In this document: piece by piece, positions 1,708-10,096 of the stretch | Layout: the number at the start of each line of letters is the position of its first letter | Numbering within the stretch: position 1 is the stretch's first letter | Assembly: GCA_048886185.1 (NCBI GenBank) | Contig: JBHLKY010000001.1 | Span: forward strand, 120,001 to 152,000 | Direction: 5' to 3' | DNA: 32,000 nucleotides | Source of the DNA: Candidatus Hermodarchaeota archaeon | Lineage (GTDB): Archaea > Asgardarchaeota > Heimdallarchaeia > Hodarchaeales > Hodarchaeaceae | Program-made: the position numbers and the translations under genes | The notes under the pieces: model-generated | Seen by the model: the letters and a program-made list of their open reading frames with translations, nothing else | What the model was told of the DNA's origin: nothing | The model's database searches: none

Positions 1708-2535
1708 TTATCCAGGTCGATCAATACTTTCTTTTTTTCGTAATTTATTATAAATCTCATTCCAATCTACAAGAATAAATACTGTAATTATTAGTATTGT
1801 AAGGATCCACATCATTGTGCTAGTTACTATCTCCCCAATTGTGGTTTGTTGGATCACTCCTGATCTGACTTGATTTAAATTAATCCCATAGAGCTGTAAG
1901 AATAATTGACCAATGGTTGTTTCGCTAGCAACTGAAGCCATGAACGCAGCTGAACACGTTAATGTCACTTTTCCCAAAAAACAGAAAAATAGAGTTTTCC
2001 ATAATGAATAATTAGCTAACCCTAAAACCACCATAAAAGTATCATCAGGAATAGGTGTTGCAGCGAAAATAAATATTATAAAGGGAGCATAGCCTTTTTC
2101 TACCCATTCGTTCATTTTCTCTAGTTGAGATGATTTTTTCAATGAATTTTTTCCTATTCTACCTAAAATCCACGCTGATAATTCCCCTACCGATGCTCCA
2201 AAACCCGCGGAGAATCCTAATACGAGGAGCATGACTGGATTTCCATGAATATCAGGGAGTAGGGTGACAAGAACGAGTGTAAAAAGATAGGGAACAGGGA
2301 GTATAATTGTGAAATTTCCTATAATACTAATAAAAAATACACCAATATTGATTCCAAGAACTCCAAATTCCTCATAAAAACTATGAACAAATCTGTATAA
2401 TTCCATTCCAATGTTAATTTGGAAATAAAGCACGGCAAGAGTTGCTCCTAGCGTGAATACGATGAAAAAGATAACAATCAGAATTCCTAAAAACATGAAA
2501 TGTTTGTTATCAACATCATTTGGCAGAATGTCCAC
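1708..2535 (-). CDS. VTT-domain (DedA superfamily) membrane protein
   Basis: Multi-TM protein with GFGASVGELSAWILGR, FAATPIPDD and LWKTLFFCFLGK, typical of the VTT/SNARE_assoc core. Confidence 0.8.
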   Translation of the reverse strand: MDILPNDVDNKHFMFLGILIVIFFIVFTLGATLAVLYFQINIGMELYRFVHSFYEEFGVLGINIGVFFISIIGNFTIILPVPYLFTLVLVTLLPDIHGNPVMLLVLGFSAGFGASVGELSAWILGRIGKNSLKKSSQLEKMNEWVEKGYAPFIIFIFAATPIPDDTFMVVLGLANYSLWKTLFFCFLGKVTLTCSAAFMASVASETTIGQLFLQLYGINLNQVRSGVIQQTTIGEIVTSTMMWILTILIITVFILVDWNEIYNKLRKKESIDRPG

Positions 2536-2604: not shown

Positions 2605-4278
2605 TTATTGTACCTTAATCAATTCTCCTTTGCAATAAGGGCATCTACTTACGCCAGTTCTAGTGATGTTGTCGTAGCAGTCTCCACAAATCTTTCGGGA
2701 GCATTGTTCACACTCATATGCTGAGTCAGTTGAAGGATGTTTTGCATTATCTAGTTGACAAAAAAAAGCTTCTCTTTCATCTGGAAAATATTTGTGTGAT
2801 TTGTCCTCTTGCTCTATTTTTGCACCACAATGTTTACAGAAGCGACTTGTCGGAATTATAGGATTTCCACAGCTTTGACAATTTTTAGCTGTCGATGGTG
2901 TGGTAATTGTAGAAACACCATAATCTCTACCAATTAATTTTGCACCACAATTAACACAAAAAACATCCCCAGGTTTGGAAGCTGTCTTACAGCGATGACA
3001 TTCTTTCGCTTTCTCAACTTGAATCGTCTGTGTTGTTGAGGGAGGGATGGAAACAGCAGAAGAGGGTGTACTTGTAGGAGCGGCTTCTTTTGATTTTCTT
3101 CTTTGAATTATAGCAACTATCAATAGAATTACAACTATAGAGCCGATAATCAGTAAGATGGGTGTGAAATTGTTCCATTTATGTTCATAGGTCACTTCAG
3201 TGTTATAAGAGATATCAAATGTAATATCAACTGATTCAGCTGGATTGACAAAAGGATCAAAGTAGATGAAGAAATACCAATCACCACTCGATGGTACAGA
3301 TAAAGAACCAGATATTGGATCTACAACATCTCTTTCAACAAGTTCAGCCTGATTGAATTCAAAAAATTTACGTGCCGTATAATCAACGTTTAGGTCAATC
3401 TCAACAGGACTAGTTCCACTGTTATACCAAACAAGGTACCAGTCTTGAGCGTAGGGAATAGTAAAATCACCAGTCACAGTAGGATCTTCTGAAGATGCTA
3501 TGAAAGATACATCAGGATAAATAGTTTCCCAGTTATTCCAACGATTTAATTCATCCGCATCAGCAATGAAAAATTCAATAGGTCCGCCTGAAGTTACAGT
3601 GAATTGAAAAGCTAAATTTGAACCCTGTTTTAGAAAATAACCCAGATATTGATAATCATGATTTCCGTAAACAGTTACACTTTCGTTATAATTTCCAGTT
3701 CGAGTCACAGTTTCTGGGAAATTTTCAAATGGTTGGTTCCAGATGAGAAACGTGACTTCGCTTTGAGCTTCTACCCGATAATCTATTGTTTGCCCTGAAG
3801 ACAGATATTCCTTCTCATACCAATATTCATTATAGTATAATGTCTGAGTGTCCGAATATGTAACGATACCATCTGCTGAAGCGTTTGTAAAGGGGAACCA
3901 GAATGCTACTCCCATGAGAGGAAGAATAACGAGTAAAGCGATGATTGCAAGTACTAATCCCCCACCCCAATAGACAGGAGCATAGTACCAAGGTCTCCAT
4001 GGATAACCCCACCACCAATACCAATGCCATGGTCTTCGCCACCATGGTCTCCAGTATCCCCCCCAGTAATGTCGATGATGAGGACGATGATAGCTTCCAC
4101 CTCTAGGAGCACGTGATACAGTTCGACGAGATCCTGTTCGGCCAAATGGCCGACCTGATGATCGAACGCTTCCTACTCTGAAACTTCGTCCCCCGCCTCG
4201 GAAACCTCCACCGCGAAAACCACCACCACCAAGACCTCCGCCACGAAAACCGCCGCCACCACGAGGCAAGAGATTCAT
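2605..4278 (-). CDS. Two-TM protein: Gly/Arg-rich N-terminus, beta-rich extracytoplasmic region, two double zinc ribbons, C-terminal RING-like finger
   Basis: FRGG repeats; TM1 LVLAIIALLVILPLMGVAFWF; TM2 FTPILLIIGSIVVILLIVAII; CHRC..CVNC and CQSC..CKHC; terminal CQLD..H..CEQC-x4-CGDC-x11-CPYC. The start is ATG 4278 (ATGA overlap with the upstream stop) or TTG 4269 (10 nt after GGAGG). Confidence 0.8.
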   Translation of the reverse strand: MNLLPRGGGGFRGGGLGGGGFRGGGFRGGGRSFRVGSVRSSGRPFGRTGSRRTVSRAPRGGSYHRPHHRHYWGGYWRPWWRRPWHWYWWWGYPWRPWYYAPVYWGGGLVLAIIALLVILPLMGVAFWFPFTNASADGIVTYSDTQTLYYNEYWYEKEYLSSGQTIDYRVEAQSEVTFLIWNQPFENFPETVTRTGNYNESVTVYGNHDYQYLGYFLKQGSNLAFQFTVTSGGPIEFFIADADELNRWNNWETIYPDVSFIASSEDPTVTGDFTIPYAQDWYLVWYNSGTSPVEIDLNVDYTARKFFEFNQAELVERDVVDPISGSLSVPSSGDWYFFIYFDPFVNPAESVDITFDISYNTEVTYEHKWNNFTPILLIIGSIVVILLIVAIIQRRKSKEAAPTSTPSSAVSIPPSTTQTIQVEKAKECHRCKTASKPGDVFCVNCGAKLIGRDYGVSTITTPSTAKNCQSCGNPIIPTSRFCKHCGAKIEQEDKSHKYFPDEREAFFCQLDNAKHPSTDSAYECEQCSRKICGDCYDNITRTGVSRCPYCKGELIKVQ

Positions 4279-5315
4279 TCCTCCTTGATTTGGGCTTGAG
4301 CGTTTTCACGGAAGAAAACATCTCTGGAAACTGCAGCAATTAGGAAAATAATTGCTAGTACACAGAGGACAAGACCAGTTATATCCAAAGTGATGGTGCC
4401 TGAAACCCGTAGAGCTCCTACTGTTGAGATCACAATGAACAGAATCCAAATCAATAGTAGATTTACCAACCCTACGACAAAACCGATTCCTTGCCAATTT
4501 CTCGTTAATTTTACATTATTATAATCTGCATTAGCCCAATGGAAAATTGCAAAAGCACTGAAAATTCCAAGAATTAAAAATATTAAGCCATAAATGAACA
4601 CTCCAATCCATAATAGGCTATATTCACCTTGGATGTTGAAATATCGTAACCAAAATCCCCCACCTCCACGAGCTTCAAAAAGATAATAGGTTGCTGTTTC
4701 ATCAGTATAGCCCATCACTGGTGCTTTGAGAAATCCTGAAATCCCAGCCAAAGGTCCTATAATGCCCAGGCAGAAGTACAAAAAAGTCATCAAAAGTGTG
4801 AAACCATAGTTGAAAAATCGAGGATTATTTACTGCAATTAATCCCTTTTGGTCCTCATATTTCTCTGGTAAGAACCCCCAGCAATCCGTTATGGTTGCTA
4901 CACCAATTAATTCATCTTTTTCAATAACTGGAATAACAGATACGTCTAGATCGCGCATTCGAGTGAAGGCAGTAGAGACAGGAGTGTCTTTTGTAACTGG
5001 ATCTATAGTGTACATTATTTCAGTCACTTTTGCTGTTTCTGCTGATAATCCTTCAGCAACAAGCCCTGTTACAATATCAAAATCAGCAATTACTCCTAAA
5101 ACTTTTTTGTTGTCCTTTTCATCAACTACAACTAAATCAGGAATTCCTTGCTCCTTCATCTTTAAAGCTGCATCTTTAATCGATTTCTCTGCTGTGATAG
5201 TATCGTATTCATCATCAATTGTTAAATCGCGAATATAAAATTCTTTATTTTGTGACAATTGAAATTGAAACCTCCAATTTTTGCAAGCTATTTCAGTGGG
5301 GAATCTCAAAAACAA
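4275..5315 (-). CDS. CBS-pair domain fused to a 4-TM C-terminal domain
   Basis: Tandem CBS motifs (IPDLVVVD..VLGVIADFDI; VSVIPVIE..LIGVATITD) followed by four hydrophobic segments. The likely true start is TTG 5258, 11 nt after GGAGGT. Confidence 0.8.
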   Translation of the reverse strand: MFLRFPTEIACKNWRFQFQLSQNKEFYIRDLTIDDEYDTITAEKSIKDAALKMKEQGIPDLVVVDEKDNKKVLGVIADFDIVTGLVAEGLSAETAKVTEIMYTIDPVTKDTPVSTAFTRMRDLDVSVIPVIEKDELIGVATITDCWGFLPEKYEDQKGLIAVNNPRFFNYGFTLLMTFLYFCLGIIGPLAGISGFLKAPVMGYTDETATYYLFEARGGGGFWLRYFNIQGEYSLLWIGVFIYGLIFLILGIFSAFAIFHWANADYNNVKLTRNWQGIGFVVGLVNLLLIWILFIVISTVGALRVSGTITLDITGLVLCVLAIIFLIAAVSRDVFFRENAQAQIKEE

Positions 5316-5637: not shown

Positions 5638-6906
5638 TCACTTTTCGATTAAATGACATAGACATGAAATTATTTCCTCAGTTGGAATATCTCGGACTTG
5701 TATTGTAGTGATTCTCCCACGTGATTTTCCATTTTTATGACGGTTTTCTACCTGAAGTTGAATGAGGCCTAGTCTTTCTAAATCCTTCAAATAGGCCCAT
5801 ATTTGTGTTTGGCGGCGAGGTCGAGCTCCTGCTTCTTCACAAATACTTAAATAGGAATTTTTTACTTCAGGTGTCGTTACAGATGTTCTATTAATAGAAA
5901 GAAGCTTAGCTATGCTTAGTAAGAGTAATTTTTGATGTGTATTCAGATCCTCAACCACTGATTTTTCAATGGGAAGTACAGAAATAACTGCTTTACGTAC
6001 ATGTTCAGTTGTGATCTGTTCACTCTTATTTCGATCTGCAAGTTTCGCAGCTCTCCATAATAGTTCAATAGCAAATCGGGCATCTCCATATTCTTCTGCA
6101 AGTCCCGCTATTATGTCGAGTAGTTCATCATCATAACATTCCTTGCGAAGTCCTAATTCTGCTCGTGAATTTATAATATCAAAAAGGTGATTCCTAGTGT
6201 AAGGGGGGAAGTTGATAAAGTTTCTGCCGAGAGAAGAAGCCGTAGATGAGTCGAGGTGATGTCTAAAATGCTTGTCACGAGTACAACACAGTAAGTTGAA
6301 TCGGGATTCATCGTTATTGTTGGGAAAATTAGAAAAATGATCCTCTCGAATTTTAGCGTCACCCTCTTCAATACGTGATAAGGCATAAAGAAAATCGCTT
6401 CGTTCATCTGAAATTAAATAATCAATCTCGTCTAAAACGAGTAAAGTTACAAGATTCTGCTCATATAATAACAGAGAAAACATTCGAAGAAGCTCATCAA
6501 AGCTAAATCCCCGTAAAGGAAAACCTGGTACTAGTTGTCGTAAAACAGATGTTAAAATAAGATGAGGAGTCTTTGTCTTGCGACAGTTTACATGAAAGAA
6601 CCGAAAACTGGGTTCTCCTGGTTTGTGTTCAGCTTTCAGGTATTTGGTAAGATCAGCTCCAAATGCTCTTGACACTACTGTCTTTCCAGTACCTACAGGA
6701 CCGTATAAAACAACTTTGCGGGAAGAAGAAGCAGGTTCGGTTATAATTGATCTAAAATAATTGACTAGACTCTTCATCTCTTCCTCTCGATGCCAAAGGT
6801 GATTGGGAATATAATTAGATGCAAACACCTTTTCTGCGCGAAAAACTGTTTTAGAGTCTGAAAATAACGCAGAAAAATTGTTGCTCGTATTAGACATAAA
6901 GTTCAC
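5638..6906 (-). CDS. cdc6: Orc1/Cdc6 family replication initiator (AAA+ ATPase with C-terminal winged helix)
   Basis: Walker A GPVGTGKT, HVNC, Walker B LVLDEIDYL, FPPYTRNHLFDIINSRA, GDARFAIELL, and wHTH YLKDLERLGLI. Confidence 0.92.
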   Translation of the reverse strand: MNFMSNTSNNFSALFSDSKTVFRAEKVFASNYIPNHLWHREEEMKSLVNYFRSIITEPASSSRKVVLYGPVGTGKTVVSRAFGADLTKYLKAEHKPGEPSFRFFHVNCRKTKTPHLILTSVLRQLVPGFPLRGFSFDELLRMFSLLLYEQNLVTLLVLDEIDYLISDERSDFLYALSRIEEGDAKIREDHFSNFPNNNDESRFNLLCCTRDKHFRHHLDSSTASSLGRNFINFPPYTRNHLFDIINSRAELGLRKECYDDELLDIIAGLAEEYGDARFAIELLWRAAKLADRNKSEQITTEHVRKAVISVLPIEKSVVEDLNTHQKLLLLSIAKLLSINRTSVTTPEVKNSYLSICEEAGARPRRQTQIWAYLKDLERLGLIQLQVENRHKNGKSRGRITTIQVRDIPTEEIISCLCHLIEK

Positions 6907-7282
6907 GTTTTAGTCGGATTAATTATTTCACATTCACTCGACTACTTCCTATGATCTAGAAGTAGATTGGGATACTTTAAACGTTAAGGAGACTAATTTC
7001 CAAATAATAATAGATGTTCTTGATCTTGGTTAAACCTCTTTTCCTTTCCTTTTCCCACTATTATAAATATTCTAGGAGGAGAAGAGATTAATATAAAAGT
7101 TTAGATTCTTTTTTTAGTTTACCATGTGATAATATCGTTTTATCAATACAACTGTGAATTGGGAGGAGTAAAAATCTCAATATAATATTAAAAAGAATTT
7201 TAATGATTAATCACGTTAAATACAAGTGAGGGAGTGTTCATTGAAAACGAATTTCAGAAGAATTCTAGAATGTCTCTTTTTT

Positions 7283-7555
7283 CTATTCACCTTTTTTCCT
7301 CAAAAGTTCGATGAGAAAGCTTACTCCGTAACCTAACCTTTACTTTGAGCATGTATTTTTCCCCTATGAATCTCTACAATCCTCTGAGATAAGTAAAAGC
7401 CTATTTCAGTCTCTTTTGCGGCATATTCAGATTGAAAGCTAATGAATTGATCAAAAATCCTTTCTAAATGTTCTTGTGTGATTCCTGCACCATTATCAGT
7501 TATATAAATCCGTATTTTCCTACTTTTTTTCTACTTTGACTCTGATCTTCTCTCT
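7283..7555 (-). pseudogene. Remnant of a sensor histidine kinase HATPase_c domain
   Basis: Manual translation: (REKIRVKVEK)/SRKIRIYITDNGAGITQEHLERIFDQFISFQSEYAAKETEIGFYLSQRIVEIHRGKIHAQSKG/(GYGVSFLIELLRKKGE*). G1 (DNGAG) and F (RIFDQF) boxes are present and G2 is eroded. There are two frameshifts (A7 run at 7524-7530; near 7333-7336) and no recognisable N box or start. Confidence 0.85.
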
Positions 7556-7773
7556 TTAAAAGCCAATGAAGAGTCATCTTTTACACTAGAAAAATTAACG
7601 ATATAGTATGATTTAAATATTGAGTTTTTTGGCATTAGTAATCTAGATAATCGTTTCAAATTATTTCCGATCTTAAATGAACAAAAAACGAGATTATTTA
7701 AGTTTGAGAAAAAAACATTTAAAAATTAGAGAATGATTGCTATTATATTGTTCATTGGAGTGTTAAATCCCAA

Positions 7774-8986: not shown

Positions 8987-10096
8987 TTGCCACCTCGTAA
9001 AAAGAAGACCTCTTCGGGTGATAAGAAGAGTGAAAAGAACGCTATTTCTGAAAAATCGGAGGTAGTACCACCATCTTTAGAGAATAATAGGGAAACCTCA
9101 TCTACACCAGTATCCCTAAGTAAAAAACCTGGAATAAATGATATCGGAGAACTTCCTGGCATCGGACCTGCCACAGCCAAGAAGCTTCAGGATTCTGGTT
9201 TTGGGACATTGGAGTCCCTTGCAACGGTTAGTATTGGAGAATTAGTCGCAGTAGGTAACCTAGGTGAGGCAACATCTCGGAAAATCATCCAAGCTGCTAG
9301 AGATGCTTTGGATTTTGGCTTTACTACGGCTGAAGAGGTCTTAGAACGTCGACGTAACATGTTAAAGATTGCTACAGGATCTGCTTCATTAGATGATTTG
9401 TTTGGGGGTGGTGTGGAAACTGGTTCAATGACTGAATTTTATGGAGAATACCGAACTGGTAAGACCCAGATAGCTCATCAATTATGTATCACAGCCCAGC
9501 TTCCTCGTGAGATGGGTGGTTTGAATATTGATGACAAAGATCCTATTAAAGTGGTTTATATTGATACTGAGGGAACTTTCCGTCCTGAAAGAATCCTCGA
9601 CATGAGTAAACGCTGGGAAGGGGATCTAGATATTAAACGAGTTCTGAAAAACATTATGCATGGCAGAGCTTACAATAGTGACCATCAGATGGTCTTAGCT
9701 GAGAAGGTTGCGAAGGATAGTCAAACACAAAGAATTGGACTTCTCATAGTAGATTCTCTTATTTCTCATTTTCGTGCTGAATATGTTGGACGTGGCACAC
9801 TTGCAGGGCGACAACAAAAGCTTAACCAGCATATCCATACTCTTCTTAAAATAGCTGAAGTTGGTAATTTAGCTGTGATTGTTACTAATCAGGTTCATTC
9901 AAAACCTGACATGTTTTTTGGTGATCCCACGGCGCCTGTTGGAGGAAATATTGTTGCGCATGCAAGTCATACTCGTGTATATCTTCGAAAGTCTAAAGGT
10001 GAAAGACGAATAGCCAGAATCGCAGATTCTCCCTTACTTCCTGAAAATGAAACTGTTTTTGCGATAACTGGGGACGGAGTAACTGATATAGGATGA
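8987..10096 (+). CDS. radA: DNA repair and recombination protein RadA with N-terminal low-complexity extension
   Basis: HhH LPGIGPATAKKL, FTTA polymerisation motif, Walker A GEYRTGKTQ, YIDTEGTFRPER, IVDS, RAEYVGRGTLAGRQQKL, GGNIVAHAS. Confidence 0.96.
   Translation: MPPRKKKTSSGDKKSEKNAISEKSEVVPPSLENNRETSSTPVSLSKKPGINDIGELPGIGPATAKKLQDSGFGTLESLATVSIGELVAVGNLGEATSRKIIQAARDALDFGFTTAEEVLERRRNMLKIATGSASLDDLFGGGVETGSMTEFYGEYRTGKTQIAHQLCITAQLPREMGGLNIDDKDPIKVVYIDTEGTFRPERILDMSKRWEGDLDIKRVLKNIMHGRAYNSDHQMVLAEKVAKDSQTQRIGLLIVDSLISHFRAEYVGRGTLAGRQQKLNQHIHTLLKIAEVGNLAVIVTNQVHSKPDMFFGDPTAPVGGNIVAHASHTRVYLRKSKGERRIARIADSPLLPENETVFAITGDGVTDIG

Follow-up and report, generated by a model that had tools for sequence, protein, structure and literature searches.

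The closest described systems are the eukaryotic APD1–4 membrane ubiquitin ligases (PF16040 and PF16041), which pass the membrane twice and hold a nested β domain on the luminal or external side; they have been called orphan E3s, with no known substrate (review, PMC13210498), and the plant members end in a C3HC4 RING (PF13920). No link of APD, PF16040 or PF16041 to archaea or prokaryotes was found in the literature searched, and APD is absent from the main text of two recent Asgard structure-mining papers. This study describes an APD-like protein, P0001, encoded in a 32 000-nucleotide stretch of a Candidatus Hermodarchaeota genome (the window). P0001 has the same two-pass topology as APD1–4 and a homologous nested β domain, and shares with the plant APDs a RING-class zinc finger at the C-terminus and with the non-plant members a Gly-rich N-terminus, whereas the identity between the ectodomains is only about 20%, the finger is of a C4C4/Asp type without specific likeness to the plant RING, and an RGG/aromatic N-terminal region, a double zinc ribbon and an operon partner containing a CBS pair and four transmembrane (TM) segments (CBS-4TM) are additional to the APD1–4 plan. 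The features of the locus, in window coordinates, are as follows.

2605–4278, minus strand: P0001, APD-like two-pass membrane protein (intact ORF, 557 residues plus stop)
3967–4278, minus strand: cytoplasmic N-terminal region, residues 1–104 (family conservation, composition)
3898–3966, minus strand: TM1, about residues 105–127 (hydropathy)
3166–3897, minus strand: acidic all-β ectodomain, residues 128–371, homologous to APD1-4_N plus APD1-4_M (AF2, HMM, hhalign)
3361–3714, minus strand: GOLD-like jelly-roll in the outer sandwich, residues about 189–306, model residues 62–179 (structure superposition, Foldseek)
3103–3165, minus strand: TM2, about residues 372–392, followed by QRRKSK (hydropathy)
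2824–3000, minus strand: double zinc ribbon, residues 427–485, two C-x2-C-x10-C-x2-C ribbons (Pfam DZR)
2608–2781, minus strand: C-terminal RING-like C4C4 finger, residues 500–557 (ligand pattern, profile and fold searches)
4275–5315, minus strand: upstream partner gene, CBS pair plus four TM segments (ORF, domain and hydropathy)

A homology search with P0001 returned 124 homologues with E values down to 1e-249, and the ORF is therefore not a chance frame. The first 104 residues contain 19 Lys and Arg residues and no Asp or Glu (net charge +19), the loop of about 243 residues between the TM segments contains nine Lys and Arg versus 37 Asp and Glu and is free of Cys, and all 15 Cys residues of the protein are located in the C-terminal tail past TM2. 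Because of this charge bias, the positive-inside rule together with hydropathy predicts an N-in/C-in topology, with both ends in the cytoplasm and the loop outside the cell. The TM1–ectodomain–TM2 layout proposed by an earlier reading of the DNA from its letters alone (hereafter the sequence-only reading) is borne out by hydropathy and charge bias, and the loop, which that reading had described as a β-rich extracytoplasmic region of ~240 residues, is all-β in an AlphaFold model with a pLDDT of 92.8. The same reading had counted two double zinc ribbons in the tail, where there is only one, made of two ribbons with four CxxC pairs and recognized by Pfam as DZR (PF12773; 35.2 bits versus a cut-off of 27.3, E = 1.4e-8); its eight Cys residues are all invariant in 31 homologues of the family, and Pfam finds the double ribbon in 31 of 31 orthologues. 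Ahead of TM1 lies a conserved RGG/Trp–Tyr–Arg region of ~100 residues that had been overlooked, consisting of (G)nFRGG repeats, an invariant GRPFGRTG and then a stretch rich in Trp, Tyr, Arg and Pro. The N-terminal MPRGGGGFRGGG repeat is kept throughout the 31-sequence family alignment, and GRPFGRTG, the Trp/Tyr/Arg stretch, both TM helices and the ectodomain are common to all of its members.

The relationship of the ectodomain to APD1–4 was approached along four independent lines: Pfam, an exhaustive HMM search, profile–profile alignment and structure. The Pfam family APD1-4_N matches 20 of the 31 family members (best E = 5.3e-6), and P0001 by itself reaches 15.7 bits over residues 206–230 (E = 0.013; cut-off 27), so that membership of APD1-4_N holds at the superfamily level and below Pfam's curated threshold; Pfam APD1-4_M gave no match to P0001. 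When the ectodomain profile was searched exhaustively against 1.84 billion proteins, its matches included P0183 from the amoebozoan Pellita catalonica (E = 2.3e-9), which lies above the Pfam cut-offs for both APD1-4_N and APD1-4_M, the Brassica APD1-like P0217 (1.6e-6), which carries both families in its precomputed annotation and has among its neighbours Arabidopsis and APD2-like proteins with PF13920, PF16040 and PF16041, and P0264 (2.5e-5), encoded on ENA metagenome contigs that reach 2.1 Mb, which exceeds the Pfam cut-off for APD1-4_N. Alignment of the family ectodomain with 19 eukaryote-like APD sequences using hhalign gave a probability of 98.9% (E = 2.3e-17, 194 columns), a value biased by the fact that the 19 sequences were drawn from matches of the same ectodomain profile; the Pfam results are free of this bias, as is a comparison with six plant APDs only, which gave 84% and an E value of 7e-6. 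The 19-sequence alignment passes through residues 230–312 of P0183, the stretch assigned by Pfam to APD1-4_M, and it is this alignment, together with a structure match over model residues 3–245, that extends the homology to APD1-4_M. The arrangement of two TM segments around the luminal domain with a cytoplasmic C-terminal tail is likewise the same in the plant APD alignment.

After its own family, the best structural match of the ectodomain model is a cluster of eukaryotic APD proteins (81% annotated as APD1-4_M and 65% as APD1-4_N), with a TM-score of 0.63 over 211 residues between model residues 3 and 245, whereas the remaining structure-atlas matches cover only the GOLD-like insert (model residues about 62–183). 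The resemblance to the luminal N and M domains of APD1–4, which the sequence-only reading had proposed, has thus been computed by Pfam, HMM search, hhalign and structure. Single-domain sandwiches match model residues 62–183 only, as fits a nested insert, in agreement with the earlier suggestion that one domain is inserted into a second, split β-sandwich. The insert superposes on the GOLD domain of p24β1 with a Z-score of 12.8 and an r.m.s.d. of 1.6 Å (89 of 93 residues aligned), a likeness of fold only, and Foldseek matches it to the GOLD domains of p24, SEC14L and ACBD3. The GOLD-like unit of P0001 is, however, nested in a second sandwich between two TM helices, and its identity to p24/TMED proteins is 10–16%; Pfam EMP24_GP25L gave no match in P0001, and a language-model-feature atlas search returned only leads under 0.9, of the GOLD/EMP24 type. 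No solved structure matching the whole nested ectodomain was found by Foldseek against the PDB or by fold search. Birnavirus VP2, a Foldseek PDB match of the ectodomain, was rejected, with a TM-score of 0.15–0.31 and an r.m.s.d. of about 15 Å; it shows nested jelly rolls and nothing further in common.

A likeness confined to a common GOLD-like or jelly-roll fold, without homology, would be conceivable in view of how widespread GOLD-like sandwiches are, of the many archaeal and bacterial proteins that match the insert alone and of the position of P0001 under the Pfam APD1-4_N cut-off, but the profiles match at E = 2e-17 across both subdomains, the full nested arrangement is common to APD proteins only, and the topology and a Gly-rich M-P/G-R/K-x-GGG N-terminus are shared as well. 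This explanation is already largely refuted and we give it hardly any credence: the ectodomain of P0001 and the domain that eukaryotic APD membrane ubiquitin ligases hold on the luminal side are genuine relatives.

The homologues carry the source names Heimdallarchaeota, Hodarchaeales, Lokiarchaeota, Thorarchaeota, Hermodarchaeota, Promethearchaeum syntrophicum and Lokiarchaeum ossiferum. When 301 genomes of the phylum, with 30 families sampled, were surveyed by means of the ectodomain profile, the APD-like gene was found in 18 of the 20 genomes of the window's genus (f1), where the frames have 554–594 residues and bear the finger, and, in a finger-less form of 476–548 residues, in 50 of 68 genomes of one family (f14) and six of seven of another (f27). 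One genome of a further family (f3) has an additional full-length match, two families (f9 and f11) have partial matches to the GOLD-like insert only, and no full-length APD-like gene was found with this profile in the other sampled families. The TM part of the CBS protein is distributed over the same families (f1 18 of 20, f14 49 of 68, f27 six of seven, and the same lone f3 genome), and the CBS gene lies immediately 5' of the APD-like gene on the same strand in all 30 genomes compared by coordinates. At the locus studied here, the TGA of the CBS-4TM gene overlaps the ATG of P0001 (ATGA), with GGAGG just 5'; in L. ossiferum, P. syntrophicum and a Hermodarchaeota MAG the two genes are 1–3 nucleotides apart, and the other neighbours differ. 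The CBS-4TM gene was seen in Asgard archaea only. CBS pairs are sensors of adenosine nucleotides. P0001 would be co-produced with the CBS-4TM protein encoded by the overlapping gene, and the two probably work together, perhaps as a complex.

The finger, which occupies the last ~60 residues of P0001, is limited to its 34 closest homologues (at least 54% identity). The ligands C505-x2-D508-x12-C521-x2-C524-x4-C529-x2-C532-x11-C544-x2-C547 are invariant in these 34 sequences, as are L507, H512, P545 and K548. With a profile of the family, paralogues of the finger were found in the same genome, and seven copies in four proteins were examined; the carriers are PCI/winged-helix, UFL1-like winged-helix or TPR proteins, and one of the paralogous fingers is encoded on contig 8, with an E1/E2 pair at a distance of ~2.5 kb. 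On alignment of the P0001 finger with its paralogues the seven Cys positions are invariant and the second position is Asp, Cys or His, and Lys once. Because Asp, Cys and His prevail at this position in the paralogues, D508 is regarded as the second ligand of a C4C4-type finger, with RING spacing and eight zinc ligands. Pfam zf-RING_4 matches residues 519–551, under its cut-off (E = 0.0025). Among PDB entries, a widened finger profile best matched the RING of cellulose synthase (CesA; E = 1.1e-4) with all ligands in register, followed by TRIM32 (0.002), the archaeal ribosomal zinc protein aS34, p44 (0.004), TRIM56, TRAF3 and MAT1. The narrow profile matched aS34 best (0.008), RINGs coming next with E values of 0.06 or weaker. 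The sequence-only reading had likened the spacing to the C4C4 finger of p44, and the invariant ligands and the CesA and p44 matches uphold this. The N-terminal RING of CesA (1WEO) and the RINGs of TFIIH p44, CNOT4 and MAT1 have eight ligands at nearly the same spacing as P0001, although the second ligand is Asp in P0001 and the similarity is weak.

The AlphaFold model of the finger (pLDDT 76.5, core about 87) shows hairpins and one helix from the fifth ligand. Its nearest structural neighbours are aS34 (Z = 6.0) and the ZZ domain of Nbr1 (Z = 5.2), then RNF4, RNF146, LTN1 and RNF213 at Z values of about 5, and many further RING and U-box domains at Z values of 4–5, with Foldseek E values of at least 0.02; ZZ domains score level with RINGs. 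From the model and the profile matches, with their modest scores, we conclude that the finger is probably a member of the RING/ZZ cross-brace class, with the C4C4 RINGs as its closest counterparts. Its C-D-C6 ligand order and C4C4 spacing set it apart from the C3HC4 RING (PF13920) of the plant APDs, and an hhalign comparison with the plant APD alignment gave a probability of 3.9%, which is not significant. Fold class is insufficient by itself to indicate ligase activity; among the RINGs of CesA, p44, CNOT4 and MAT1, CNOT4 is to our knowledge the only established E3, and CesA, as far as we know, is not one.

The ubiquitin machinery to which such a finger could connect is present in the genome, where Pfam finds, above cut-off, four E2 proteins (UQ_con), two ubiquitins and five ThiF-type E1 proteins, so that all three components for which the sequence-only reading had suggested looking are encoded; the genes are partly clustered, on contigs 14, 1 and 8. 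In the finger, the residue at C1+2 is aliphatic, C7 is followed by Pro (CPxC) and C8 by Lys; these are the usual E2 contact positions, as in the c-Cbl and RNF4 interfaces. Judged from these residues, the most likely use of the finger would be the recruitment of an E2, with E3 activity, and the preservation of contact positions of catalytic RINGs, the paralogous finger close to the E1/E2 pair and the need of the four E2s for E3 partners all argue in this direction rather than for a finger that serves as a structural or protein-binding zinc module. Such a module could mediate oligomerization, the docking of a wH/PCI-type partner or contact with nucleic acid or the ribosome, and P0001, its APD homology kept, would then be a ubiquitin-independent receptor or a CBS-4TM regulatory subunit. 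The RING of CesA, the best match in sequence, is a dimerization module, the RINGs of p44 and MAT1, which rank high, are scaffolds, aS34 is the top structural match, the paralogous fingers reside in PCI/winged-helix, UFL1-like and TPR proteins, and most orthologues do without the finger; we therefore consider a zinc module of this kind a serious possibility, though one with less than an even chance of being correct.

The distribution of the finger also bears on the age of the RING in this family. Seventy-three ectodomains were placed in a quick maximum-likelihood tree with SH-aLRT support, which is short, unrooted and has long branches. The window's family is a single, long-branched clade in it (99), within which the finger-bearing forms and two finger-less sequences form one clade (99). 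Of 17 eukaryote-like APDs, 16 group apart from the window's family and together with a second set of proteins, and the long-branched P0264 is unplaced. Two of three members of this second set that were checked, P0270 (from the cluster of P0232) and P0201, lie on gene-dense contigs of prokaryote type, and such prokaryote-context proteins nest within the eukaryotic APD cluster with a support of 89–90. They belong to a second Asgard lineage of APD-like proteins (P0232, P0206, P0189, P0186, P0201 and P0213; alignment A6), which have the same topology as P0001, an RGG-type N-terminus and an APD-like ectodomain but are shorter (about 370–450 residues), have a single zinc ribbon and no RING and group with the eukaryotic APDs. 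A profile search of the genomes located full-length members of this lineage in f4 (best E = 1.8e-84), a different family within the same class, as well as in f27, and in one case a CBS gene lies immediately 5' of its gene. A locus search with alignment A7 returned mainly matches to zinc-ribbon tails in cyanobacteria, an Altiarchaeota MAG and an Aegiribacteria MAG. In a few relatives of P0001 the tail is swapped for WD40 repeats or TPRs are added at the N-terminus. Many eukaryotic APD members have no RING, several non-plant members having instead Pro/Tyr-rich tails with PPxY-like motifs, and in non-plant eukaryotic APD-like proteins a similar M-P/G-R/K-x-GGG start is accompanied by a Gly/His-rich region.

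Because the finger is limited to one genus, is unlike the plant APD RING and has paralogues in the same genome, it was most likely acquired independently in the window's genus as a recent add-on. Since the Asgard proteins that group with the APDs carry zinc ribbons only and many eukaryotic members are RING-less, independent gains of RINGs are the simpler reading, and a RING was probably not ancestral to the APD family. The proposal of the sequence-only reading that P0001 represents a prokaryotic precursor of transmembrane RING ligases is not supported in that form, as its finger is confined to one genus-level lineage and differs from the plant RING-HC. Because most members have no finger, the core function of the family must be independent of ubiquitin ligation.

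The nesting of the prokaryote-context proteins in the eukaryotic cluster (SH-aLRT 89–90) and the patchy Asgard distribution, with each lineage in three or four of the 30 sampled families, would also be expected if the archaeal genes had been acquired by horizontal transfer from eukaryotes and were uninformative on the origin of the APD family. There are, however, two deeply diverged Asgard lineages, the window's lineage is a single clade (99) on a long branch within a strictly conserved archaeal CBS-4TM operon, and the tails are zinc ribbons of archaeal type; the tree is unrooted, so that a sister relationship between the second archaeal lineage and the eukaryotes would account for the nesting just as well. 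Transfer from eukaryotes is thus very unlikely in our view. No direction of descent is claimed, because the tree is short, unrooted and long-branched; the APD homology in Asgard archaea nevertheless points to an archaeal origin of the family.

We favour, with about an even chance of its being right, the reading that P0001 is a membrane receptor of the APD superfamily with a CBS partner, whose finger docks E2~ubiquitin for membrane-proximal ubiquitylation. P0001 would span the cell membrane twice, its N- and C-termini facing the cytoplasm and its acidic nested β-sandwich displayed outside the cell, and the outer sandwich with the GOLD-like jelly-roll is the likely ligand-binding or partner-binding part. 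Inside the cell, the RGG/aromatic N-terminal region and the cysteine-rich tail would be available, the tail presumably acting as an output for protein interactions that is swappable across the family: most Asgard members have zinc ribbons and a few have WD40 or TPR, and eukaryotic members have RING-HC or PPxY-like motifs. The C4C4 RING-like finger was probably added to this tail in the window's genus, its source being the set of similar fingers that the genome encodes, and its most probable role would be to bind an E2~ubiquitin conjugate of the genome's own machinery. The ubiquitylated targets would be membrane-proximal proteins, perhaps P0001 itself or its CBS partner. A more far-reaching version, in which the first eukaryotes inherited the APD family from a Heimdallarchaeia-like source and a membrane RING ligase already links the cell surface to the Asgard ubiquitin system, and possibly to ESCRT, under nucleotide-sensing control by the CBS protein, is speculative and rather unlikely as a whole.

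In conclusion, Asgard archaea possess the luminal module of the APD family together with the topology and even the Gly-rich N-terminus, and the list of eukaryotic signature proteins is thereby extended by a membrane protein. Caution is called for before the RING is taken to be ancestral. The eukaryotic APD family gains a tractable archaeal context, with a fixed CBS-4TM partner and with RING-less members in hosts that have been cultured. As a candidate archaeal E3 anchored in the membrane, the form with the RING would be a rarity, and it allows a direct test of whether or not Asgard ubiquitylation takes place at the membrane.

Focusing on the ectodomain of P0001, the APD-like two-pass membrane protein, relatives with an ectodomain of the same type were found to differ in their cytoplasmic parts, with WD40 following TM2 in three of them (P0119, P0120 and P0123) and TPRs preceding TM1 in another (P0122), which suggests that the output domain attached to this ectodomain is swappable. 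The 11-kb metagenomic contig of P0151 carries a tandem of four paralogues of 450-487 aa, every one of which contains a double zinc ribbon.

Another APD-like lineage of Asgard genomes (P0232, P0206, P0189, P0186, P0201 and P0213) consists of shorter proteins that have just one zinc ribbon, and in the ectodomain tree this second lineage clusters with eukaryotic APDs. In one member, a short CBS-only gene lies immediately upstream.
Loci L057-L062, in genomes G166, G036, G015, G094, G247 and G288: second APD-like lineage

The extreme N-terminus, M-P/G-R/K-x-GGG, is common to the Asgard proteins and the non-plant eukaryotic APD-like proteins (P0183, P0207, P0259 and P0264), and in both groups a low-complexity stretch, rich in Gly and in either Arg or His/aromatic residues, lies between this start and TM1.
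Window 3967-4278, - strand: N-terminal region of P0001, low-complexity, resembling non-plant eukaryotic APD-like N-termini

The surroundings of P0001 in the window contain the following genes.
Window 1708-2535, - strand: VTT/DedA-type membrane protein gene (PF09335), downstream of P0001
Window 5638-6906, - strand: Orc1/Cdc6 gene, Pfam-confirmed
Window 8987-10096, + strand: putative RadA-like recombinase ORF, from translation alone
The VTT/DedA-type gene was not a conserved neighbour of the P0001 homologue in the three other genomes inspected. The Orc1/Cdc6 gene is followed by about 870 bases of ORF-poor sequence (window 6907-7773).

The window's own genome, G000, encodes a family of C4C4-type fingers resembling the C-terminal finger of P0001, frequently two in one protein, in cytoplasmic proteins that also have PCI/winged-helix, UFL1-like winged-helix or TPR parts; one such finger lies about 2.5 kb away from an E1/E2 pair.
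G000 C16:53300-53473, C7:36716-37486, C27:35291-35911, C8:15678-15785 and C4:218762-218863 (loci L052-L056): P0001-like C4C4 fingers

The solved structure nearest to the model of the P0001 finger is aS34 (PDB 9fhl chain a; Z 6.0), an archaeal ribosomal zinc protein of the Saccharolobus 30S subunit, which also resembles the finger in sequence (E 0.004-0.008). This likeness hints that P0001-type fingers are an old archaeal module.
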